61,734 bases of DNA from Planctomycetota bacterium (GCA_024274855.1 JAJSAJ010000012.1:1-61734); one strand, 5' to 3'; shown: positions 14,567 through 24,999, counted from the first letter of the stretch. Notes: generated by a model not told the origin, from the letters alone. Made by a program: numbers and translations.

Positions 14567-15009
14567 CGTTACCTCGTCTCTCAAATGAATCACGTCGCTT
14601 GTCCGTTAAATGTTGCTCGACGTACCAGCAACATCACGGACGGATCACGGAGTTAGACGCGCAAAGGGATCGGGATCAGGCAGCCTCGGCCCGCACACAG
14701 GCTCGGATCGTGCTCGCGGCTCGATCACAAAAGCGGCGGCGCCGCGCGGACAGACGGCGACCGTTTATTGTAGCTCCCTGGCAACGACTCTTCCATGGCA
14801 GACCATGGGATGATTTACTGCCGAATAGGCACACCCCTGACCGACGGTAGACCAGCATTCTGAATCCCAGGCACTTGAGACTCGGGACTCGGACCGACAA
14901 GAAAGCAACGCGGCACGAAGTCAGGTTGCCGTTTTTCGACTTCGCGCCGCGAGCACGACAGCGTCGTGATTCAAGCCAATTGCTCCATTACAGTTGAGCA
15001 AATCGCGAC

Positions 15010-15297
15010 TTACCCCAGCTTCGGGTCCGGATAAACGCCCAGGACTATTTCACGCTCGCTCTTGTCAAAAAGCGAATCGAATGTCTGGTTGTGGTAGAGC
15101 TGTCGACCACTCCGCTCGTCCCGAACACGAAACGTAACGTTGCGAGGCAACTCGAACCTCTCAATTGCCTCCCGGCAAAGATCGCCGATCGTTGTTTTTC
15201 CCCGCGGGCAGTCTCGACGGTGGCAGTAATTGCCGTTCGGGGCGTAGAGGACTAACGAGCGGCGTTTCTGATCGGCTAGTGTTGTCGTCTGTGGCAT
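15010..15297 (-). CDS. Candidate ubiquitin-like (beta-grasp) modifier ending in C-terminal Gly
   Basis: 95-aa ORF downstream of the E1 and E2 genes on the same strand. It ends ...GVYPDPKLG-TAA. AAGGA RBS. The fold assignment is inferred from the sequence pattern only. Confidence 0.5.
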   Translation of the reverse strand: MPQTTTLADQKRRSLVLYAPNGNYCHRRDCPRGKTTIGDLCREAIERFELPRNVTFRVRDERSGRQLYHNQTFDSLFDKSEREIVLGVYPDPKLG

Positions 15298-15559
15298 AGT
15301 ATCATCATCCTTCGTGAGTCATAGTTTTTGGCAGTTTGTTTGGTTATCTTGAAAGGGCCATTTACTGTCTCATCGGTGTACGAATGGGTCGTGGGTCAAT
15401 GAGCACGCTCGGGAACCTGTCATGGTCTTCCAGCCGCACAAACGGGTAGCCACGTTGCGATTGGCGTGCCTCGTTCGCGTTCCAATGACGCGCCATTGAG
15501 TGACAATGGGGGAGGTCGTGGCCGTACCGGCCATTCAGGAAGCCACATCAATGCATTCC

Positions 15560-16129
15560 TTATGCCAAGATCCAATTGTGGTGGTCTTCTCCAAGCGGAA
15601 TTGTCCGAGGACCTTCCGGGGGATACGCTTCAAACAACGGCCGATCATCGGACGGAAAAAACGGTCGGTTCCGCGCGTAGAATTCAGCCGCAGCCGGATT
15701 CAGAACCTGTCTGTCCTCCAAATTGATTGCGCACCAGTCGGCTCGAACTACGTCCCACATGTTGACAAGAATGGACTTGAGCGAGGGCCGGGGCACCTGC
15801 TGCCATGCACATAAAGTTCCGGACGGGGTGAAATTCGGGTGAAAGGGTCGATCCGGGCTCGTTATCGACGCCAGCTCGCCGCGTGCGGGCGAACGCTCCA
15901 AGTAATCGATTTTGTATTTGATTCGCACATCGACTGGGCCGGCAAGAAACAGACGTTTTTCCTGGTCGCGCGTGAGAAAACGAGTCTGAAAGCGGACCAT
16001 GAAGATCATAGCGTCACCCAGATCCGTGATGCCGCGATTGGACACGACGCGACTATGCTCCACAACCGAATACAACTCCAGCACCAGAGCATACTTCACT
16101 GCTAACCATTGCCAACGGTCGATGCTCAT
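15560..16129 (-). CDS. UBC-fold E2-like ubiquitin-conjugating enzyme homologue
   Basis: FHPNFTPSGTLCAW has HPN-x4-G-x2-C with the same spacing as canonical E2 active sites. The preceding VDVRIKYKIDYLERSP resembles the E2 beta-sheet/YP region. The start lies 14 nt after the E1 stop. Confidence 0.7.
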   Translation of the reverse strand: MSIDRWQWLAVKYALVLELYSVVEHSRVVSNRGITDLGDAMIFMVRFQTRFLTRDQEKRLFLAGPVDVRIKYKIDYLERSPARGELASITSPDRPFHPNFTPSGTLCAWQQVPRPSLKSILVNMWDVVRADWCAINLEDRQVLNPAAAEFYARNRPFFPSDDRPLFEAYPPEGPRTIPLGEDHHNWILA

Positions 16130-16143
16130 TGCTTCACCCCATG

Positions 16144-17298
16144 TTACGCAGTAACCTCGATACCAAGTGCAAAGGACGTAACACGTCCTGCGTGTGTCAC
16201 TTCAATGATGGTGCCAGACGGAACTCCCCAATACGACAAACGACTGTTCCAAAACGGCTCGAGCTCTTCGAGCCGCACTTCTTGGTTTCTCTCGGAATCG
16301 ACAGGCCGCATGACCGAGTGGCACACAGCGCAGACGCCGAACGAACTGGTGTCACTCGGTAGCCACCGGACAACGTCGCTCGTGTGATTGCCACAGTCGA
16401 CGCAGCGAGCGGAGAAAGCGATGACTCCATCGAACCGGAGCGTCGCGTCGTCATAGCGCCCAATCCCAACCGCAGCGAGTAGATTGCCGAGCGTCACCAC
16501 GCGCGGGCCGCGCGCCAACCATATGATGCGATACCGCTCGGATGCATGATGCCGGCACGCTGGATTGCGGGGCAAGATAAAGTTCGTCACCGAATAGGGC
16601 TTCAACCCGATATGGACGGACCGATTGATGACCGCATCCCAATCATGTCCTGACCAGATCGGCAACACAGCACTAACGACTTGGCTTGCCGCCTCCCTGG
16701 CAAGCGCCATCGTGACGCCACGCCCGTTCTCGATAGTCGACTCCGTGCAGCCTCCGAACGGATCATCTTCCGGCCAGTTGTAATAGTCCCGACTAAACGA
16801 ACATTCGGCACACGCGTCCAGCTCCGATCCTGTTCCGAATGCACTGACGGTAAGGCAGTTTTCGGCCGGTTGCACGTTGGCTCTGACCAGATTCGCTCCG
16901 GTACGACGAGCAAGTCGATTTGCCAACGCCAAACAACGCCAATTGTCCGCGCAAACAATGATCAACCCACGTGCCCCGACGACACCATCCGGCACACGTT
17001 GGATGTCGCAGGCATACGACACGCATGGGATCCCACGAGTCCGCAGCCATGTCGCATGAACATCGGCCTTCTGCAAACCAACATCACCAAGCGTGCATTG
17101 CCCGGCGACCGCATGCTTGTCCATGTAGCTCTTGTTGTCGACCAGAACCAGCGGAACCCGTATCCGGCGAACCAGCTGCCGAATTACCTGCTTGCCGACA
17201 CTGCCCCCGCCAACAACCGTTACCCGACGCTCGGGCCGCTCCAAAAGGGCCCAATGCCCGCCAGACAACCCACCGGGAAAACAATCCGATTCGCGCAT
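16144..17298 (-). CDS. ThiF/MoeB/HesA-family E1-like adenylyltransferase
   Basis: VTVVGGGSVGKQ Rossmann loop. IIVCADNWRCLALANRLARRTGANLV matches the E1 DN-helix motif. CAEC plus CVDC...CAVC are Zn-type cysteine pairs. Confidence 0.75.
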   Translation of the reverse strand: MRESDCFPGGLSGGHWALLERPERRVTVVGGGSVGKQVIRQLVRRIRVPLVLVDNKSYMDKHAVAGQCTLGDVGLQKADVHATWLRTRGIPCVSYACDIQRVPDGVVGARGLIIVCADNWRCLALANRLARRTGANLVRANVQPAENCLTVSAFGTGSELDACAECSFSRDYYNWPEDDPFGGCTESTIENGRGVTMALAREAASQVVSAVLPIWSGHDWDAVINRSVHIGLKPYSVTNFILPRNPACRHHASERYRIIWLARGPRVVTLGNLLAAVGIGRYDDATLRFDGVIAFSARCVDCGNHTSDVVRWLPSDTSSFGVCAVCHSVMRPVDSERNQEVRLEELEPFWNSRLSYWGVPSGTIIEVTHAGRVTSFALGIEVTA

Positions 17299-18064
17299 CG
17301 CGCTGCGCCCCTCTCACCAGCCCTCTGACCCTGACTGGTGATACCTCACTGCCACGCTCATGCCTGGTTTGCCAGACAAGACACCCCGGCGGCGGCGAGA
17401 CGCCTCTTTCGGATGATCACGACTCGGCACCCCGCCCGTCGCATCGCCCCATGTTGACCAGCATGACCGCATGGCTCGCGTCGACCCCCGTGGCCCGGAC
17501 GGTAGCCCGGCGTGCGGGCACCGGTCCCACATCCCGTGAAATTCACCAAAACCGGCGAACCTCGTGCTATCACCTTCGCTCTTGCTTGGTGCGTGACAAA
17601 CTCTCGGTAACCCGTAAAGTCCGCACCACCTATCGCCATTTGACCAACATTCACCTCGAAGTCAACATTCGGCGTGCCGGATTTGCCAGCAATTACAAAC
17701 TCCTCATCGAAGGTAATACCGTTACAGCGGCATACGCCCCCACCTCCCCCCCATTACAACCACTGCGTCTGCAACATACGGTGCAGACTGATGTTACAGA
17801 CTTCATATTCTCTCAGAACACAACTGGAGATTATGTGTCTTTGACAAAAAACCGGCACTGGCGGCCCATCACCTTTCTTTTTTTCCAACACCTCGCCAGA
17901 GTAAGTACCACCTCTTGGGAAACGAAAAAAAAGGCATATTCTGGCCGAACACAAAAGTTTCTGCCCCCCACGAAGGCCCGCACCACACCGGGGACTAACT
18001 AGGGGTCAGACCTTGTTCTTTGTTGTCATGAAGGAGTGCCAAGGATAGAAATAGAATAGGCGCC

Positions 18065-18181
18065 ATGGCCCGACCACTTCGAATAGAGTTCGCTGGCACG
18101 ATCTATCACGTGATGTCGCGTGGGAATGCGCGCCAAGCGGTCTTCCGAGATGACGTAGACCGACAGATTCTGCTCGATCAT
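18065..18181 (+). pseudogene. N-terminal remnant of a REP-associated tyrosine transposase (RAYT, IS200/IS605 Y1-like, COG1943-type)
   Basis: MARPLRIEFAGTIYHVMSRGNARQAVFRDDVDRQ matches the characteristic N-terminus of this family. Similarity is lost after about 39 codons, and the catalytic HUH/Tyr regions are absent. Confidence 0.55.
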
Positions 18182-18325
18182 GGAAAATACGAAAATCGGG
18201 CCTGCCCCCCTTGGCGGCATGAGGCAAAGTGGGACATCAGCAATTGTGGACCCCGGGGCCGAACTCTCCAAGCATTTGTAGTAGGCTTCCCTGGAATTGG
18301 GTAATGCATATAGTAGCGGCCACTG

Positions 18326-20305
18326 TCAACGGACTTTATCGAAATCAATGGGTGTTTGGTCATTCGAATCCAACAACAGCCAGAGTGTCTGGTTGTCAGT
18401 CGCGCTGGAGATAGCTCGCACAGTGCCGTCGCAAAGGGTCGTTAAGAACACCGAATGACCAGGACCGATCAATCCTTTCCTTGGATCTGACTTGGTCACA
18501 GGCAGATCCTCCGGCTTCGTCCAGGGCACCGATCGATCAGGAGTCACACTAACAATCAAGAGGGTACACGAGGTGCCATCCTCGATATCCTGCATGCGAA
18601 GCGACTCTTTGCTGCCGAACACGGTACCTTTCCCGATCGGGACCAGATAAGTTGTCAGGCCGAGCTTCACATGTGCCTCTGGGTTCTGAAAGGTCTTTAC
18701 GATGAGTGGGATGAACTGCTTATTGTGTTCACTATCCCAAGGCTCGTCCAGACGAAACTGATCGTACAGAGCTTTCTGGTCCAGGAAGGGAAGAATATGA
18801 ACGCGCCAGCTCAACAGCGGTTTGCCGGAGGCGTCGTACGATGCGGCAGGAGGATATCGCTTGTGGACATCATGGTATTTGTGCATGGCCAACCCCAACT
18901 GCTTCAGGTTGCGCATTGACTGCATGTGTTGTGCCACTTCACCGTCAGTCGTATTTATGTCCGCCTGGGGCTTCGCGAAAGGTCTGACCGTCGGCGTTTG
19001 TTTCGGCAAGGTGACACTTCCTGGGGTCTGGCCGTTGATGCCACGGACGATTCGTGCAACTTCCTCCTCGGTAAAATGCCCCGTGATTCGGGCCGATCGC
19101 GAAATCGGCACGATGATCCGCGGCGCACATATGAGCTTGCCATCGATCAGTACAGACAGGAGCCTGTTGAGGTTTTCCGAGGTAAGCTTCTTCATCTTCA
19201 CCGCACCTTTCGGAGTGAAGACAAGGTCGATCACCAGTTGTCCGTGCTCATCCACAGCGGCCGCCGCCTCTGCGATGTCCGCTGACGTAACACAGGACGA
19301 TTTATGCAGGTAGACATTGCGAGCGGATCCCACGACTGATGCTTCAGTCAACCCTTCGCCAGGTTCGTTCTGGGCGACACGGAACTCGACCTTAACCGTC
19401 GATTTGGGCGGTGGGGTCGTCGAACGCATCGAGAAGCGGACCACTCGGTCCTGGAAGAGCGTGAATTCGAGACCCAGCGTTGGATAGAGAGCATATATTG
19501 TGGCCGGCGTCTCCTTTCGCTTCTTAGCTTCTTCGGGATTGCCGAAGGCAGCCGTTAAATCGGACAGACTCGCCCCCAGCCCGATACCCTCCTTCGTCTG
19601 GCCCGCAAAGTCGCGAACAATCACTTCCCGCACTTCCTGACCGTAACAGTCCACTGAGTGCCAGCCCCGCACGGGACTGACGCGAAGGGTGAATCCGCGT
19701 GAACGGTATTCGAGCATTTTTCCGTTGTCTGCGGTTATGTCCGGCTGTCCCAACAGGCGAATCACCTCGTCACGACTCACTCCAAACCGCGCCGGTCCCA
19801 ATCCGACTCCCGGCTTTAACTCCGGAGCAGCCAAGTCTTTCTCCTTGGGTAGCATCGGCAGCGTTGACAGGCCATTGGTTGTCACTGTGAACCCGTCCGG
19901 CGGTTGCATTCGCAATCGGTCGAGATCCACATCGCCGTCGAACACGATGTCACGCATCGTCCCAGTAAAAGCGTGGCCATCCGTCGACCAACCCTCATAT
20001 TCCAGCTGCACTGGAAGATCTGTCCGCGGGTCGACCCAGGCCGTCCATTCCAGCCGCAGGCTCACCTCATCCTGCGTGGCGACGAAGCCAACGACGGTAT
20101 GTCCGTCAATGACCTTTTCCGGAAGACGACGCACCGCGTTCGCAGAAAGTTTCCGTATCCAATCGTATATATTGTCCCGGGGACGTGATTTCGACCCCAC
20201 GGTTATGTGGGCCTCTCGTGAAGCTGGCAACACGAGCATCGATATTCCCAGATTCCTGTCCAACACGGAATAGGTACCCTGCATGTGCTCATACTCAGTT
20301 CGCAT
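18326..20305 (-). CDS. Multidomain protein: LolA/RseB-like N-terminal region, SecD-head-like segment, C-terminal DUF1559 domain (no prepilin leader)
   Basis: The C-terminus MRNLKQLGLAMHKYHD...LSWRVHILPFLDQKALYDQFRLDEPWDSEHN is a DUF1559 signature. The track ORF starts at 20497, but ATG 20305 overlaps the upstream stop (ATGCGAACTGA) and is more plausible. Confidence 0.7.
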   Translation of the reverse strand: MRTEYEHMQGTYSVLDRNLGISMLVLPASREAHITVGSKSRPRDNIYDWIRKLSANAVRRLPEKVIDGHTVVGFVATQDEVSLRLEWTAWVDPRTDLPVQLEYEGWSTDGHAFTGTMRDIVFDGDVDLDRLRMQPPDGFTVTTNGLSTLPMLPKEKDLAAPELKPGVGLGPARFGVSRDEVIRLLGQPDITADNGKMLEYRSRGFTLRVSPVRGWHSVDCYGQEVREVIVRDFAGQTKEGIGLGASLSDLTAAFGNPEEAKKRKETPATIYALYPTLGLEFTLFQDRVVRFSMRSTTPPPKSTVKVEFRVAQNEPGEGLTEASVVGSARNVYLHKSSCVTSADIAEAAAAVDEHGQLVIDLVFTPKGAVKMKKLTSENLNRLLSVLIDGKLICAPRIIVPISRSARITGHFTEEEVARIVRGINGQTPGSVTLPKQTPTVRPFAKPQADINTTDGEVAQHMQSMRNLKQLGLAMHKYHDVHKRYPPAASYDASGKPLLSWRVHILPFLDQKALYDQFRLDEPWDSEHNKQFIPLIVKTFQNPEAHVKLGLTTYLVPIGKGTVFGSKESLRMQDIEDGTSCTLLIVSVTPDRSVPWTKPEDLPVTKSDPRKGLIGPGHSVFLTTLCDGTVRAISSATDNQTLWLLLDSNDQTPIDFDKVR

Positions 20306-20585
20306 CAGTCCGTCGGCAAACGCCACGCACGTGTATTTCGCGACCTTCCCGACGACGCGCTCGCAAGCGATCCAGAGCTCTGGTGGTTGCCAGGCGTTTA
20401 AATAACCCGGGCCAGTTCCGGATCGGCTGCAATTGTGCCTGTTTCCAGGCGCAAAGGAACGTGTCTTGAAAACAGTCGTTGATGTCGTCCTCCACATTCA
20501 GGAGGCGATAAGCCGTCTTCCAAACGATTGGCCCGTACTCGTGGACGATTCGCGACCAATCATGCATTTGGAGCCCTCCGACCAT
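20295..20585 (-). CDS. ECF sigma-70 region-2-only ORF (truncated sigma factor, no region 4)
   Basis: IVWKTAYRLLNVEDDINDCFQDTFLCAWK...LATTRALDRLRARRR is a typical sigma-70 r2 sequence. The ORF ends after 96 aa with no sigma-4 helix-turn-helix. Confidence 0.5.
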   Translation of the reverse strand: MVGGLQMHDWSRIVHEYGPIVWKTAYRLLNVEDDINDCFQDTFLCAWKQAQLQPIRNWPGLFKRLATTRALDRLRARRREGREIHVRGVCRRTDAN

Positions 20586-20980: not shown

Positions 20981-22108
20981 TCAACAAGCGTCTTCCTTCA
21001 ACCGCCGCTGCAGAACGGAATCTGGCAGACGTATGACGGTTGCGCGTTTGATGCGATTGTGGACCGGCTCGTCCTCTTCATCCCGGGCCGGCCGAAACGT
21101 AAATGCGACCACATACATACCGAGTTCATAGGCGTCGGTTCGAATCACCGGTGGCCAAAACTGCTCCGCGTCCTTGGTCTGAAGCATCGCGGCAACACAA
21201 CGCGATGCGCGACCAGTAAAGCCACCAATGACCATCTCCAGGCTGCGCCGGATCTTGTCGAACCGAAAGTAGACCAATCCGGCATCTCGATTTGATTCGT
21301 ACGGAAGGTATTCCCATTGCCCCGTTTCCGTCTCGAAATACATACCAGGCTTGGCCTTTCGATCACCGGCAGACAGATGCCGTCCTCCCCAACAACTGAG
21401 CGGCTTATCATCCGTTTTGCGATAGATCATAACGCAAGGACAGCTACGGCGCACCGGTTCGGTAAAATCGTCTTCCGAGCGGAAAGGGACGGCGTTAACG
21501 AATGGAAATGCAATCACAGGCTCGCTCAACGGATTGCTTTTTACGCTGCCCAGGCAAATCGTGGCATTCCGCGAGGACTTCTCGCGAAAGTGCTCGATCT
21601 TGACGATGGCGTCCTTTTTCAATTCATCGCACGTCTTCGTCTTGGCACACCAAGTCGGCGTCAACCGAGGATCGATCTTCGGGATGGGACGCTGTTTGCG
21701 TGCCCGTTTCCTCCTGCTCTCGTCCGAAGCCAGCGTCGTGATTCGATTGACGACAGCCGCATGTAGCAACGAGTCCGCGGCAGCAACCAGATGATCGCAT
21801 CGTCTCGCATCCCAGCGCGTACCCATCGATATCTCTACATGTTGACAGGATCGGGCCATTGACCAGAATCGATCCGGTTTGACAACGAACAAGGCTCCCG
21901 GTAGCTCGGCTTCCAAGACCCTCTCGGTTTGCACCAGGTATTTACAGACGTTTTCCAGAGCATGACGATTAATCTGCTTGGAGCTCCGGTCCAACAGATG
22001 CATCAGTTGATGGCGAGTAATCCCAATTTCTTTCGCCAGGTGGCTGATCGATGGCGCGTCGGCGGCTTGGAGCCCGAGCAAATGAAACAGACGTAGTTGG
22101 ATTCTCAT
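20981..22108 (-). CDS. Hypothetical protein with N-terminal XRE-like helix-turn-helix
   Basis: SISHLAKEIGITRHQLMHLLDRSSKQIN is an HTH pattern. GGAG lies 8 nt upstream of the ATG at 22108. The remaining ~300 aa are unrecognised. Confidence 0.5.
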   Translation of the reverse strand: MRIQLRLFHLLGLQAADAPSISHLAKEIGITRHQLMHLLDRSSKQINRHALENVCKYLVQTERVLEAELPGALFVVKPDRFWSMARSCQHVEISMGTRWDARRCDHLVAAADSLLHAAVVNRITTLASDESRRKRARKQRPIPKIDPRLTPTWCAKTKTCDELKKDAIVKIEHFREKSSRNATICLGSVKSNPLSEPVIAFPFVNAVPFRSEDDFTEPVRRSCPCVMIYRKTDDKPLSCWGGRHLSAGDRKAKPGMYFETETGQWEYLPYESNRDAGLVYFRFDKIRRSLEMVIGGFTGRASRCVAAMLQTKDAEQFWPPVIRTDAYELGMYVVAFTFRPARDEEDEPVHNRIKRATVIRLPDSVLQRRLKEDAC

Positions 22109-22136
22109 AAGAACAACTCCCGGCTGGGCAGGCCAT

Positions 22137-23459
22137 TCATTTCCCGGCACGACGTTTTTCGGGCAGCGATGCGAAATGCTTGTCTGCAAAGTCTAAGTAT
22201 TGCTGCCAATCGTAGCGAGTCAAGTCATGCTTGCCGCTTCGAATATGGTAACCGATGGTCCCGGCAACCGGACGATCGACCGGCTGCATCCGTTTGACCG
22301 GCAACCCAGGCGCACCTAGCAGATGATAGACCGGATTCGCCGCCAAAGCGGAGAGGAACTCGCCCCGCGGATCCGCCCACCGGTCCTCCTTGGCACTGGC
22401 GATATAGACGGGGCGAGGGGCAACCAGTGCAACGAGCATGTGCTGGTCGACCGGCAATGCTTGTTCATTGTCGTTGAACTGCTTGAAGTTGCCACAAAAC
22501 CAGTGTGGAAACACGGTGTTGATCCGTTTGACTGTTTCGCCGAAATGCCGCCTGCTAAGCGCGGCACCACCACATCCCGAGTCGTTCGAAATGACCAGCG
22601 CGAATCGTGCGTCACGGGCTCCCGCCCAAAGAGCCGTCTTGCCTAGACGCGAATGGCCCAAGACAGCAACGCGACGCGGATCCACGTCCGGATCCTGCTC
22701 GAAATAGTCCAACGCACGGCTCAAACCCCAGGCCCAGGCACTGATCGAACCCCACTGGTCAGGCTCAGGACGCGACTGGCCCTTCTTGTAACTCAACGGA
22801 TGCACGCCATTCTGAAAACCATCATCGAAATCCGGATCGATATCGCCGTAGTAGATCGTGGCCAACCCATAACCACGACTCAGAATCAATTCGATCGGCC
22901 AACGACTGGCCGCACTACCACGAGTCTTCCGCGTCGCCCGATGATCGATATAGCCGCGATCCGGTTTATTGCGCATCCATCGTGACGAGAGTCGGATGGC
23001 GGGATCCAAATGCACTGCCTGATTACCTCCAAAGTTCAGGCCGACAAACAAGGGCACCGGCTTTGACGTACCTTTCGGAAGATAGATCAAGATATCCATC
23101 GACGACTCGTGCTGGTGGCTCGTCAAGGAAACCGTAATCTGCTTGCGAATGGCCTTGCCAGCAAGTGCATTAACATCCCGATCAAACTCGCGATACGTCA
23201 CCTTCTCCGGAGGGCCTGGACAGCGACCATAGACCCATGTTTGAAACAAACGCAAGATCTCGGGCCGCCGCGATTCGATCCATGCCTGAGCGTCTCGGAT
23301 CGGCTTACCGTCCTGGCTGACCAGCGGATCCGGAAGGGTAAACTCGGGGACGTTCTGCTCGTCGTAGTTGGCTCCCGCCGGCTGTGCATCAACGGGATCG
23401 GCAACCAACGCCACCAATGCCCATACCAAGACCAAGACTACCTGTCGAGACTTCTTCAT
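22137..23459 (-). CDS. Secreted glucuronoyl esterase-like (CE15-type) alpha/beta hydrolase
   Basis: Signal peptide [34 protein letters not shown] nucleophile motif and overall CE15-like layout. Confidence 0.7.
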
Positions 23460-23661
23460 CGTGACGGCTCCTAACGCGGGCTGCGCCCGCAAGGCTGTAG
23501 GGTCTACGGTACAAACCTTCTTCACAAGCATGCGCACACCGTGCCTGCATGTCACAACCTGAGACTCCCAGTTAAAAGACGTGCCGGCCGACCGTCTCCG
23601 AGAAACACCACGCCGAAGACAATTCCAATTGGCTCGAGACTCCATCGCTTTCCTAGTCTTC

Positions 23662-24999
23662 TCATTGGCCAGATTGATTCGTTTCTTTTTTCGGAAGAAC
23701 TCTCTGCAGGATAATGAACCCGATCGCGCCGGCAACCAACGACGCTGCCAAAACCCCCAGTTTAGCTTGTCCGACAATCGCCGCCTCTGAAAACGCCAGG
23801 CTGCTGACAAAAAGCGACATGGTAAACCCGACGCCGCCCAGACAACTGACACCCCATACATGTTTCCACGAAACACCGGCGGGTAACTCCGCAAAGCCCG
23901 TTCGGATCGCCAGCCAGCTGAAGCCGAGCACGCCGATCTGCTTGCCGATCACCAGACCGAAGACGACGCCAATTCCGACAGAAATGGGACCGGTCGCCAT
24001 GCTGCCAAGATCGACCGCCACACCGGCATTGAACAAGGCAAACAGTGGCAGGATCAAGAACGACGAGACCGGGTGTAAATGATGCTCTAAACTGATACCA
24101 GCCGGCCTCATGTCCTCAGCGGCAACGTAGATATCCTCGAGTGCTTCCAGCTGTTGATGGTCGGTAACCATGCTTTCCCGAGTCAATCGGCTACTGGCCA
24201 ATTGATCCAACCGGTCTCGGCAGCGAGTCAGAAAAGCGCGTGGCTCCAACGTAGCGCGGACGGGAATCAGTAATGCAATCAGCGTACCGGCAACGGTCGT
24301 GTGGACACCAGACGCGAGAATCGCCGCCCAGACTCCAACACACAACAGCAAATAGATACTCGTTCTCCGAATCCCCAGGCGTCCCGCAAGGAGAATCAGA
24401 ACCATAAACACGGCCGCGATCACCAAGGCGCCAAAGACAATGGTTTCGGTGTAAAACAAGGCGATGACAACAACTGCGCCCAAGTCGTCCACGATCGCAA
24501 GGGCGGTGAGAAAGACCTTCAAGGAGACTGTAACGCGACTGCCGAACAACGACAGGATACCCAAGGCGAAGGCAATGTCAGTCGCCATCGGGATGCCCCA
24601 TCCTCGCGAACCGGGTCCACTTGGATTAAACGCCAGGAAAAGTAACGCCGGCGCCAACATCCCGCCCAACGCCGCACTGAACGGAAGCACGGCGTTCTTA
24701 AGCGATTAAAGTTCTCCCACCAGAATCTCTCGCTTGATCTCCAGACCAACGACAAAAAAGAAGATGGCCATCAAACCATCGTTAATCCAGTGATGCAACG
24801 ACAACTGAAAGGTTGAACCGCCCAAAGAAAACCCAAGCGTCGTGTGAAGCAGATCGTCGTAAGCGCCCTCCCAGGGCGAATTGGCCCAGGCTAATGCGAC
24901 GACCGCGCAGAGCAACAGCAAGATGCTGCCGGAAACTTCTGAGTGGAAGAACCGTTGGAACATACTCGGTAGACTGCCGGGTGTTTCTCGATCTAGCAT
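23662..24999 (-). CDS. nhaA: Na+/H+ antiporter NhaA, interrupted by an in-frame TAA at 24706-24708
   Basis: [56 protein letters not shown]...[15 protein letters not shown]. The two track ORFs are one frame. Confidence 0.8.

Follow-up and report, generated by a model that had tools for sequence, protein, structure and literature searches.

Results

Three minus-strand genes form a candidate ubiquitin-like conjugation trio

Three open reading frames (ORFs) follow one another on the minus strand of a 61,734-nucleotide stretch of planctomycete DNA, which was analysed as a whole and is referred to here as the window. They encode an E1-like protein of 384 aa (16144-17298), an E2-like protein of 189 aa (15560-16129) and a putative small tag of 95 aa (15010-15297). 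Each ORF begins with ATG and ends with TAA; 14 nt separate the E1 stop from the E2 start, and 262 nt lie between the E2 and tag genes. An initial annotation of this DNA had proposed the three genes as a compact ubiquitination cassette, and the coordinates, motifs, spacings and TAA stops that it gave were all reproduced from the sequence. With a codon model trained on the window, each ORF scored above zero in its own frame only (E1, 0.08; E2, 0.17; tag, 0.14; host mean, 0.21 +/- 0.05), and HMMs built exclusively from relatives matched all three (E = 2e-63, 1e-25 and 6e-10, respectively). Chance ORFs are thus ruled out by the coding signal together with the homologues found for each ORF. Scans for Rfam families and tRNAs gave no match in the window, and promoter-like and terminator-like sites between 14500 and 18400 were no more frequent than in shuffled sequence.

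The 384-aa protein belongs to the ThiF/E1 superfamily

The E1-like adenylating enzyme (16144..17298, minus strand) combines a single ThiF adenylation domain with a C-terminal domain that bears two CxxC pairs. Motifs read from the sequence are VVGGGSVGKQ, IIVCADNWRCLALANRLARRTGANLV, CAEC (C163/C166), CVDC (C299/C302) and CAVC (C323/C326). The Pfam ThiF model (PF00899) matched the window protein over profile positions 21-236 of 238 with an E-value of 1.4e-4 and a score of 21.5 bits, which is below the gathering score of 28.1 bits. Word-indexed searches that started from either the E1 or the E2 sequence alone matched nothing but the window itself, and the window E1 retrieved no relatives when used as query against genome contigs. 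An exhaustive HMMER search defined an E1 family of 273 representatives, mostly full-length, approximately 390 aa long and 24-45% identical; ThiF was matched by 40 of 40 aligned members (best E = 7e-31). When compared with the PDB, the family profile matched MoeB first (2.4e-20), followed by UBA5 and ThiF (5e-17), with MccB among the best.

At 21 of the 23 conserved positions the window E1 has kept the family residue, and none of those lost belongs to the ATP site or the cysteines. The residues kept comprise G30, G32, D54, K77, D118, C163, C248, C299 and C326, all invariant across 40 family sequences, as well as the near-invariant C166, C184, C302 and C323. Cys184 (codon 16747-16749, minus strand), the candidate catalytic residue in the crossover loop, stands opposite the Cys of the MoeB ...ALTCVEAG... 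segment in the profile alignment. The C-terminal domain of about 125 aa is conserved in the family; its hhalign comparison with Ub gave E = 0.014 across 19 columns only and was not significant. The ThiF match, the family profile and the ATP-site residues agree with one another and with the ThiF/MoeB-type E1 core proposed initially. Judged from its sequence, the 384-aa protein is a divergent ThiF/E1-superfamily enzyme.

The 189-aa protein is predicted to be a UBC-fold E2

The E2 gene (15560..16129, minus strand) encodes FHPNFTPSGTLCAW, which reads HPN-x4-G-x2-C and hence HPN-x7-Cys. The codons of H97-P98-N99 lie at 15833-15841 and that of the predicted catalytic Cys107 at 15809-15811 (both minus strand), in register with canonical E2s. 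Comparison with five canonical E2s by hhalign gave a probability of 80.5% for the single sequence (E = 1.3e-5) and of 92.7% for the family (E = 4.4e-7), and aligned H97-P98-N99...C107 to H75-P76-N77...C85 of UBE2D2. The family comprises 30 clusters, each with E <= 1e-34, whose annotations are all unnamed or "hypothetical"; across its 30 members, the Cys never varies and HPN hardly does. UQ_con (PF00179) matched neither the window E2 nor its L002 homologue at E <= 1, and the best PDB match of the family profile, from sequence only, was an E2 (E = 0.0038).

An AlphaFold2 model based on the 30-sequence alignment reached a pLDDT of 84.7 and a pTM of 0.79. Among the best 50 PDB matches listed by Foldseek for this model, 49 were UBC E2 entries, nearly all eukaryotic, including UbcH5, Cdc34, Ubc4 and Rad6 (probability 0.99-1.00). 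The top matches, UbcH5c, Cdc34, Ubc4 and Rad6b, had a probability of 1.00, an E-value of 3e-4 and a target-normalised TM of 0.55-0.62. The confident UBC-fold model, with the Cys in the canonical place after HPN, bears out the earlier assignment as a UBC-type E2. The modelling indicates that the 189-aa protein is a genuine UBC-fold E2, and the profile comparisons place it as a remote homologue of the UQ_con family, outside the curated membership.

The 95-aa protein is a putative ubiquitin-like tag

The putative tag (15010..15297, minus strand) ends in ...YPDPKLG-stop, with the codon of Gly95 at 15013-15015 (minus strand). A smaller relatives-only HMM also matched this ORF (E = 1.8e-10). Eight of 12 family members terminate in QPDAxLG-stop, and the other 4 carry 1-6 extra residues. 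The Gly is conserved family-wide, and the exposed terminal Gly noted initially, within KLG-stop, is confirmed. The single-sequence model of the tag had a pLDDT of 70 and the order strand-strand-helix-strand-strand; Foldseek found no match to it below E = 1.7, the weak ones including the beta-grasp UFD domains of SUMO-E1 and Uba3. By hhalign, neither the tag nor its family gave a significant match to Ub, NEDD8 or SUMO (E = 0.012-0.036) or to the second tag found in the operons of relatives. No Pfam or NCBIfam model, ubiquitin and UQ_con included, matched the E2 or the tag.

Relatives carry the trio within a larger operon

Relatives were sampled as 13 independent loci from Planctomycetaceae, Gemmataceae and Planctomycetia MAGs; no close relative of the window locus was present in the collections searched. 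In all 13, the trio is housed in a larger operon of 11-13 genes. Homologues of the three genes were found together in 12 of the 13, the L005 contig stopping before the E2 and tag positions, and their co-occurrence is thereby confirmed. The operon opens with a divergent HTH regulator, a small protein, a C4HC3 prokaryotic-RING-like protein, the E1, the E2 and a YbjN-like protein, and continues with the tag, a JAB peptidase, an Mpa-like proteasomal AAA ATPase and a second tag/JAB/ThiF module. A YbjN-like gene follows the E2 gene and precedes the tag gene in 12/13 relatives (the L005 contig ends earlier). The RING-like C4HC3 protein is present in 13/13, and five of eight such members matched Prok-RING_1 (best E = 0.0017), a Pfam family reportedly defined by Burroughs, Iyer and Aravind in 2011. 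JAB peptidases number one or two per operon; in most relatives one adjoins the tag gene, matching Prok-JAB (E = 8e-6) with HxH...SxxD intact.

The gene order of the second module is tag, E2-sized protein, JAB, ThiF. L020, a 14th and more distant locus, has Dop–Pup–PafA in its place. The order of the operon is permuted in L005, L009, L015 and L016, where the RING-like gene and the E1 gene stand at the far end, which indicates that no fixed order is required. Among related genomes, the full operon shows stable chromosomal synteny and lies in no evident defence island.

The window copy is a reduced and rearranged derivative

Of the full operon, only the HTH, E1, E2 and tag genes remain in the window. 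Searches of the whole 61.7 kb with HMMs for the RING-like, JAB and AAA proteins and the remaining partner families gave no match, not even to a pseudogene remnant, which agrees with the earlier remark that no JAB or RING gene lies nearby. The 262-nt spacer between E2 and tag (15298..15559) is occupied in relatives by the YbjN-like gene of approximately 290-340 aa; no YbjN-like remnant was detected there by HMM, and a 54-aa ORF within the spacer had no coding signal in its frame and no family match. Likewise, the 766-nt stretch upstream of the E1 gene (17299..18064), which in relatives is the place of the small-protein and C4HC3 RING-like genes, yielded no remnant by HMM; its ORFs scored weak or negative for coding, and none makes a convincing gene.

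The Xre/Cro-type HTH protein (402 aa; 20981..22189, minus strand) is the ortholog of the relatives' divergent regulator (Pfam HTH_26, E = 7e-4; tblastn, 1e-79 with L002 and 3e-53 with L001; family HMM, 2e-110). Its gene is inverted in the window, and about 3.7 kb of unrelated genes separate it from the E1 gene. GCE (63-71% identity), HTH, PhoU (65%) and PHO4 (75%) are common to the window, L001 and L002, so the neighbourhood is the same, in an altered arrangement. Genes beyond the far end of the L001/L002 operon have no homologue in the window. The initial annotation had regarded the compact cassette as a design distinct from Ub/E1/E2/RING/JAB operons. This view calls for revision, since the trio of the relatives sits in an operon with RING-like, JAB and AAA genes; given these operons and the shared but rearranged neighbourhood, the window copy is a reduced, unusually diverged derivative rather than a separate design. 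It is the sole reduced version found.

Other features of the surroundings were also revisited. A DUF1559 gene is inserted at the locus. The segment at 20295-20585 matches Sigma70_r2 only (E = 1e-9), in keeping with the truncated sigma factor described earlier. The segment at 18065-18304, previously called a transposase remnant, had no match in Pfam, NCBIfam or the PDB, which leaves that call unsupported; we presume a resemblance to IS200/RayT-type N-termini.

The trio has diverged strongly and its reading frames are open

The flanking genes are much more similar to their counterparts in relatives than the trio is. For the window E2, identity to a relative does not exceed 34%, compared with 37-58% between the relatives themselves. 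It keeps 22 of 41 family-conserved positions, compared with a family median of 95% and 80% for the next-lowest member. The 19 losses include the segment LCLGHP directly after the catalytic Cys, a segment that reads LCAWQQ in the window; HPN, G104 and C107 are intact. All three frames are open, with 668 codons in total. In a point-substitution simulation at the excess divergence (a crude estimate, with a simple substitution model and indels uncounted), all three ORFs stayed stop-free with a joint probability of about 4e-5 (E1, 0.02; E2, 0.015; tag, 0.14). We infer from the sequences that divergence after the rearrangement was unusually fast in the trio, most of all in the E2.

Discussion

The reading that we moderately favour is that the trio constitutes a reduced, still-coding module for conjugation of a ubiquitin-like tag by thioester chemistry of the eukaryotic type, derived from the larger planctomycete operon. 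It retains the E1, the UBC-fold E2, the co-occurrence of the three genes and the terminal Gly of the tag from the initial interpretation and abandons the stand-alone compact architecture. The intact catalytic residues, the open frames, the simulation and the frame-specific coding scores suggest that the trio is still under selection. Against this reading, the 7-9 partner genes kept by every relative are absent, and the trio alone may therefore not be the functional unit; the residue losses of the E2, the codon scores under the host mean and the putative nature of the beta-grasp fold of the tag also stand against it.

We hypothesize that the E1 uses G30xG32, D54, K77 and D118 to bind ATP and then adenylates the tag at its exposed Gly95; the tag would need no processing, because its gene ends at this Gly. 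The crossover-loop Cys184 would then accept the tag as a thioester and hand it on to Cys107 of the UBC-fold E2, where HPN, seven residues upstream, may provide the oxyanion-hole Asn by analogy with UBE2D or UBC9. Since the window lacks a RING-like partner, a JAB and an AAA ATPase, transfer to the target lysine would be either E3-independent (directed by the E2 or by auto-modification, in line with proposals for Bil E2s) or dependent on partners encoded off this contig. As to its origin, an inversion with its breakpoint directly past the tag gene would have brought PhoU/PHO4 alongside the tag; deletions and an insertion would have followed, and subsequently the unusually fast divergence of the trio.

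The main rival, which we consider rather unlikely, is a decaying relic, wherein the partners were lost by rearrangement and the E1, E2 and tag are functionless and drifting in frames not yet broken. The disappearance of every partner gene without remnants and the gene-free 262 nt and 766 nt would fit such decay, as would the extreme position of the E2 at conserved sites (22/41), an identity to relatives far under that of the flanking genes, coding scores lower than the host mean, and a locus disturbed by the inverted HTH gene, the inserted DUF1559 gene and the fragment with sigma-70 region 2 only. However, according to the simulation, neutral drift would have brought stops into the 668 intact codons with a probability above 0.9999; moreover, all catalytic and ligand residues checked are retained, the tag still terminates exactly at the conserved Gly, and neither the start codons nor the 14-nt junction between E1 and E2 has been disrupted. 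Alternatively, an active trio may not be autonomous, its E3, JAB peptidase and Mpa-like ATPase being encoded outside the 61.7-kb contig as a version of the relatives' pathway split across loci. The permuted operons of L005, L009, L015 and L016 make this conceivable, and an inversion breakpoint right past the tag would explain why PhoU/PHO4 abut it, the downstream module having been moved and not deleted. We nevertheless regard such a split as unlikely: the window shares the L001/L002 neighbourhood, yet lacks the other operon genes across 61.7 kb, and strong E2 divergence is unexpected if the fit to the same RING-like partner were still required; the view is also restricted to one contig with no close relative on record.

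A role in anti-phage defence, by Bil- or Bub-like tagging of a phage protein with an arms race as the cause of fast evolution, appears still less likely. This idea draws on analogy, as type II CBASS and Bil, the characterised bacterial E1/E2/Ubl operons, are defensive and Bub is suspected to be so (PMC11601596), and on the Xre-type HTH regulator that accompanies the operon, the much faster evolution of operon genes than of flanking genes, and weak matches of the E1 to the Cap2-model E1 domain. The latter, however, reflect generic ThiF-domain similarity, and the E2, tag and HTH proteins match no PADLOC or NCBIfam defence model. The stable synteny outside any evident defence island also argues against defence, and the proteasomal-type AAA ATPase at the core of the full operon, together with Pup ligases in one lineage, indicates protein turnover. 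Finally, sulfur-carrier or peptide modification by an E1 and small protein in the manner of MoeB/MoaD, ThiF/ThiS or MccB, without conjugation to proteins, is suggested by MoeB, ThiF and MccB as top PDB matches of the E1 profile and is highly improbable. It is contradicted by the adjoining UBC-fold E2 with HPN and Cys, which starts 14 nt downstream and accompanies the E1 in 12/13 relatives. Moreover, relatives carry RING-like and JAB genes, the tag terminates in LG and not GG, and no rhodanese domain, thiamine or molybdopterin genes are found nearby.

To our knowledge, eukaryotic HPN-Cys E2s are rare in bacteria and no bacterial operon with such an E2 has been studied experimentally. The E2 and tag of this family escape detection by Pfam, NCBIfam and PADLOC models, and the nearest structural neighbours of the E2 are eukaryotic. 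The complete operon is tied to a proteasomal-type AAA ATPase, and to Dop/Pup/PafA in one lineage, and thus bears on the coupling of tagging to unfoldases. A wider proposal, which we offer tentatively and think rather doubtful, is that the window trio and its relatives represent a previously undescribed planctomycete pathway, in which a RING/E1/E2 cascade of eukaryotic style would attach the LG-ended tag, JAB would remove it and the Mpa-like AAA ATPase would read it. Such a pathway would be the bacterial parallel to ubiquitin-to-unfoldase targeting, with a second ThiS-like module or Pup depending on the lineage, and the window would hold a natural minimal version that is catalytically active without E3, deubiquitinase or unfoldase. 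The window copy reveals which genes outlast the loss of the E3, peptidases and ATPase. Its three proteins could be used to test conjugation without an E3; should the copy turn out inactive, it would be a dated example of operon decay.

Known bacterial E1/E2/Ubl systems include CBASS, Bil, Bub and Caldiarchaeum-type operons. The archetype of the Ub/E1/E2/small-RING/JAB operon is that of "Candidatus Caldiarchaeum subterraneum", which has been reconstituted (PMC5654768), and related operons in Actinobacteria, Planctomycetes and Acidobacteria are attributed to Burroughs, Iyer and Aravind 2011 as cited in PMC4197634. The 2006 Iyer paper mentions neither planctomycetes nor AAA+. Our trio shares with the Caldiarchaeum type an E1 with a single adenylation domain, a candidate crossover-loop Cys and an extra C-terminal domain, a UBC-fold E2 with HPN-x7-Cys, and a small tag with a C-terminal Gly; its relatives also share the C4HC3 RING-like protein and the JAB peptidase beside the tag. 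In contrast, the window is devoid of RING and JAB, the tag ends in LG instead of GG, and the full operon adds the YbjN-like protein, the Mpa-like AAA ATPase and the second tagging module.

Membership in Bil, Bub or Cap2 was ruled out. As in Bub (6E/DUF6527), the E1, E2 and putative Ubl are related to eukaryotic machinery, and the E1 profile matched Citrobacter BubCD (1.9e-11). Bub forms Tyr and Ser oxyesters, is devoid of catalytic cysteines and uses a DUF6527 serine protease (PMC11601596), whereas both the E1 and E2 cysteines are conserved here and DUF6527 is absent among the Pfam-scanned neighbours. Type II CBASS Cap2 shares generic E1-domain similarity (PADLOC E1-E2 models, 7e-5 for the window E1 and as low as 6e-15 for family members); however, Cap2 is an E2-E1 fusion that acts on a CD-NTase together with the JAB protein Cap3, while the genes described here are separate and have their own tag, with no CD-NTase among the Pfam-scanned neighbours. 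The MoeB/MoaD and ThiF/ThiS pairs resemble the trio in the best-matching adenylation domain, a zinc site of CxxC type and a small partner with a C-terminal Gly as the activated residue (predicted for the trio), but have no E2, a GG terminus and a context of cofactor biosynthesis. Bil resembles the proposed window cascade in being an E1/E2/Ubl thioester system without a dedicated E3, and its E2 is proposed to choose targets directly (PMC11601596). [quoted passage not shown] Bil is always accompanied by the JAB peptidase BilC, and the single adenylation domain and missing JAB set the window trio apart from it. The second module of the relatives' operon, by its gene order, is like Bil.

Results

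The initial annotation had described a compact minus-strand cassette encoding an E1, a UBC-type E2 and a small Gly-ended protein (here, the tag). Open reading frames for E1 (16144-17298, 384 aa), E2 (15560-16129, 189 aa) and tag (15010-15297, 95 aa) were found exactly where it had placed them. Each motif that it quoted is legible in the sequence, 14 nt separate the E1 stop from the E2 start and 262 nt the E2 gene from the tag gene, and all three genes end in TAA, as it had reported. Scored with codon log-odds learned from 18 long window ORFs, the three genes reached 0.08, 0.17 and 0.14, positive in the annotated frame only; the host mean is somewhat higher, at 0.21 ± 0.05. The window has a planctomycete appearance: it encodes DUF1559 proteins, and neighbouring genes match planctomycete MAGs.

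Searched alone, the window E1 matched Pfam ThiF below threshold (E 1.4e-4), with nearly the whole profile covered, and a word-indexed homologue search returned nothing besides the query itself. An exhaustive HMMER search revealed a family of 273 representatives, typically 370-400 aa and mostly matched over their full length at 24-45% identity; all 40 aligned members match ThiF (best 7e-31). G30, G32, D54, K77, D118, C163, C248, C299 and C326 are invariant in the alignment, C166, C184, H252, C302 and C323 are nearly so, and the window protein keeps 21 of the 23 strongly conserved positions. The family profile best matches MoeB (2.4e-20), UBA5 and ThiF, with weak matches to BubCD and Cap2; the family is thus distinct from other E1 families. 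C184, in the region of the crossover loop, aligns with the Cys in MoeB's ALTCVEAG segment and is the obvious candidate for the thioester Cys.

The HPN-x4-G-x2-C spacing of the 189-aa protein is indeed canonical, being that of UBE2D2 (H75-P76-N77...C85). No model in Pfam, NCBIfam or PADLOC matched the window E2, and the E2 and tag families are missing from these collections. With hhalign, the single sequence aligned to five canonical E2s at a probability of 80.5% (E 1.3e-5) and six family members did so at 92.7% (E 4.4e-7), with HPN, Cys and the subsequent helices in register. Each of the 30 clusters gathered by a profile search (E <= 1e-34) is either unnamed or annotated as "hypothetical". The AlphaFold2 model built on their alignment reached pLDDT 84.7 and pTM 0.79. 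Canonical E2s made up 49 of the 50 Foldseek matches listed (probability 0.99-1.00), nearly all of them eukaryotic (UbcH5c, Cdc34, Ubc4, Rad6b, Ube2G1, UBC9). A UBC fold with the Cys after HPN, on which the earlier reading had been staked, is thus borne out by the model, Foldseek and hhalign.

An HMM built from relatives only detects the window tag ORF (E 1.8e-10). The family C-terminus is QPDAxLG-stop in eight of 12 members, and the remaining four carry tails of 1-6 residues. A single-sequence model (pLDDT 70) has the order strand-strand-helix-strand-strand; with it, Foldseek gave no significant match, only weak UFD beta-grasp matches (E 2-3). Alignment to Ub/NEDD8/SUMO by hhalign was not significant (E 0.012-0.036).

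Contig look-ups and one genome scan yielded 13 independent loci from Planctomycetaceae, Gemmataceae and Planctomycetia MAGs, and family HMMs identified one conserved operon in all 13. A divergent HTH regulator gene is followed by genes for a small protein and for a protein of ~210 aa whose cysteines and histidines form a C4HC3 pattern, then by E1, E2, a gene for a protein of ~290-340 aa and the tag. A JAB peptidase of ~360 aa usually comes next, ahead of an AAA ATPase of ~560 aa; after these are encoded a second tag of ~105 aa that ends ...KG, a protein of ~275 aa, a DUF2016+JAB protein and a second ThiF. The order is circularly permuted in four loci (L005, L009/L014, L015 and L016), where the RING-like C4HC3 gene and E1 follow the second ThiF instead of preceding E2; in L005 the contig edge falls before E2, the ~290-340-aa gene and the tag. 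Two adjacent ORFs match the second-tag HMM in L009/L014 and L016.

Pfam Prok-RING_1 matched five of eight C4HC3 proteins (best E 0.0017), and weak RING and PHD matches were also seen; the arrangement described for prokaryotic RINGs is C4HC3 (PMC11354881). One member of the ~290-340-aa family matched YbjN above threshold, and the ~360-aa JAB peptidase has an intact HxH...SxxD motif. The AAA ATPase (L010:13180-14883) matched the NCBIfam "proteasome ATPase" model (pup_AAA, Mpa/ARC) over nearly its full length (E 6.6e-27) and fell far short of the equivalog cut-off. To our knowledge, Planctomycetota are not known for proteasomes.

The downstream half of the operon shows a second module with Bil gene order (L002:12857-15617; likewise L005, L007, L009, L010 and L012). 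Its ~105-aa tag is ThiS-like (...AVAVING...FVKPSSxKG, with a short tail in some), and its other genes encode an unannotated ~275-aa protein in which a Cys is conserved, the DUF2016+JAB peptidase and a ThiF of ~275 aa. In the syntenic relative L001 (7860-14996) genes are split or fused: E1 is called as 543 aa and overruns the start of E2, the genes for the YbjN-like protein and the AAA ATPase are in pieces, and the N-terminus of the tag is disrupted. The "contig_" naming suggests that these breaks are long-read assembly indels, not real decay.

Only the HTH, E1, E2 and tag genes of this operon are present in the window. Family HMMs found no match to any other operon family across its 61.7 kb, in agreement with the earlier remark that neither JAB nor RING lies near the trio. 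The neighbourhood is that of L001 and L002: the glucuronoyl-esterase-like protein is 63-71% identical, the HTH regulator has a match in each, and PhoU and PHO4 are 65% and 75% identical to those of L001. PhoU/PHO4 adjoin the tag gene in the window, whereas in L001 they adjoin the glucuronoyl-esterase-like gene. The HTH gene (20981-22189) is inverted compared with every relative in which it is retained; called with a TTG start, it shares 53 nt with the end of the glucuronoyl-esterase-like gene (22137-23894).

Inserted between HTH and E1 are a DUF1559 gene, encoding a 723-aa protein (18326-20497) with a SecDF P1-head-like domain and a C-terminal DUF1559 domain, and, overlapping its start, a 96-aa ORF (20295-20585) with sigma-70 region 2 alone, the truncated sigma factor of the initial annotation. 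The transposase remnant proposed at 18065-18304 was not upheld: this 79-aa ORF is unmatched in Pfam, NCBIfam and PDB, though its N-terminus may resemble that of IS200/RayT-type Y1 transposases. The locus would be most simply explained by an inversion that broke immediately after the tag gene and by later deletions. The 416-nt PhoU-tag spacer, the presumed junction, contains nested inverted repeats (14586-14599 with 14960-14973; inner pair 14708-14724 with 14942-14958, 17 nt, 94% complementary), possibly a scar, possibly a small mobile element.

Discussion

The trio is a genuine E1/E2/tag module of a general kind already known. Its family is planctomycete and unannotated, and the window form is uniquely stripped and fast-diverged. 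The earlier observation of a cassette stands, and its interpretation is supported in part. Among known systems, prokaryotic Ub/E1/E2/RING/JAB operons come closest, with that of Caldiarchaeum as archetype (PMC5654768); bacterial examples have been reported in Planctomycetes, among other phyla (PMC4197634). The relatives fit this class because of their RING-like and JAB genes, and exceed it by the Mpa-like ATPase, the YbjN-like protein and the second tagging module, whereas the window copy falls outside it on both RING and JAB. Assignment of the trio to Bil, Bub or Cap2 was rejected, as their defining features are absent.

We favour, with slightly better than even confidence, a reduced, still-coding thioester cascade. 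E1 would adenylate Gly95 of the tag and carry it as a thioester on Cys184; the tag would pass to Cys107 of E2, where the HPN Asn would stabilise the oxyanion, and transfer to lysine would come last, either E3-free or with partners encoded off contig. That the trio is active but reliant on partners encoded elsewhere is improbable. A role in defence, by analogy with Bil and Bub, is less probable still, and for an E1 family closest to MoeB set beside a UBC-fold E2, a sulfur-carrier role is highly improbable.

It is unlikely, though a serious alternative, that the trio is a non-functional relic. Its divergence far exceeds that of neighbouring genes: no relative is more than 34% identical to the window E2, against 37-58% among the relatives (58% between L001 and L002), and of 41 family-conserved positions this E2 keeps 22, where the family median is 95% and the next-lowest member keeps 80%. 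Even so, HPN, G104 and C107 of E2, the ligand residues of E1 and the terminal Gly of the tag are preserved, and all three frames remain open. In a crude simulation that introduced enough random point substitutions to account for the excess divergence, the probability of remaining stop-free was 0.02 for E1, 0.015 for E2 and 0.14 for the tag, or about 4e-5 jointly before indels. The simulation argues that the trio diverged under selection for coding.

A 14th locus (L020:3523-13949) carries a more distant E1 subfamily with RING-like, E1, E2 (WHPN...C), YbjN-like, tag and JAB genes. After this core come genes for an AAA ATPase that is Mpa-like and has proteasomal OB domains, for two Pup ligases (Dop/PafA) and for a 64-aa protein ending in ...EGGQ, the canonical Pup terminus. 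Here, ubiquitin-type and Pup-type tagging systems thus share one operon and one unfoldase.
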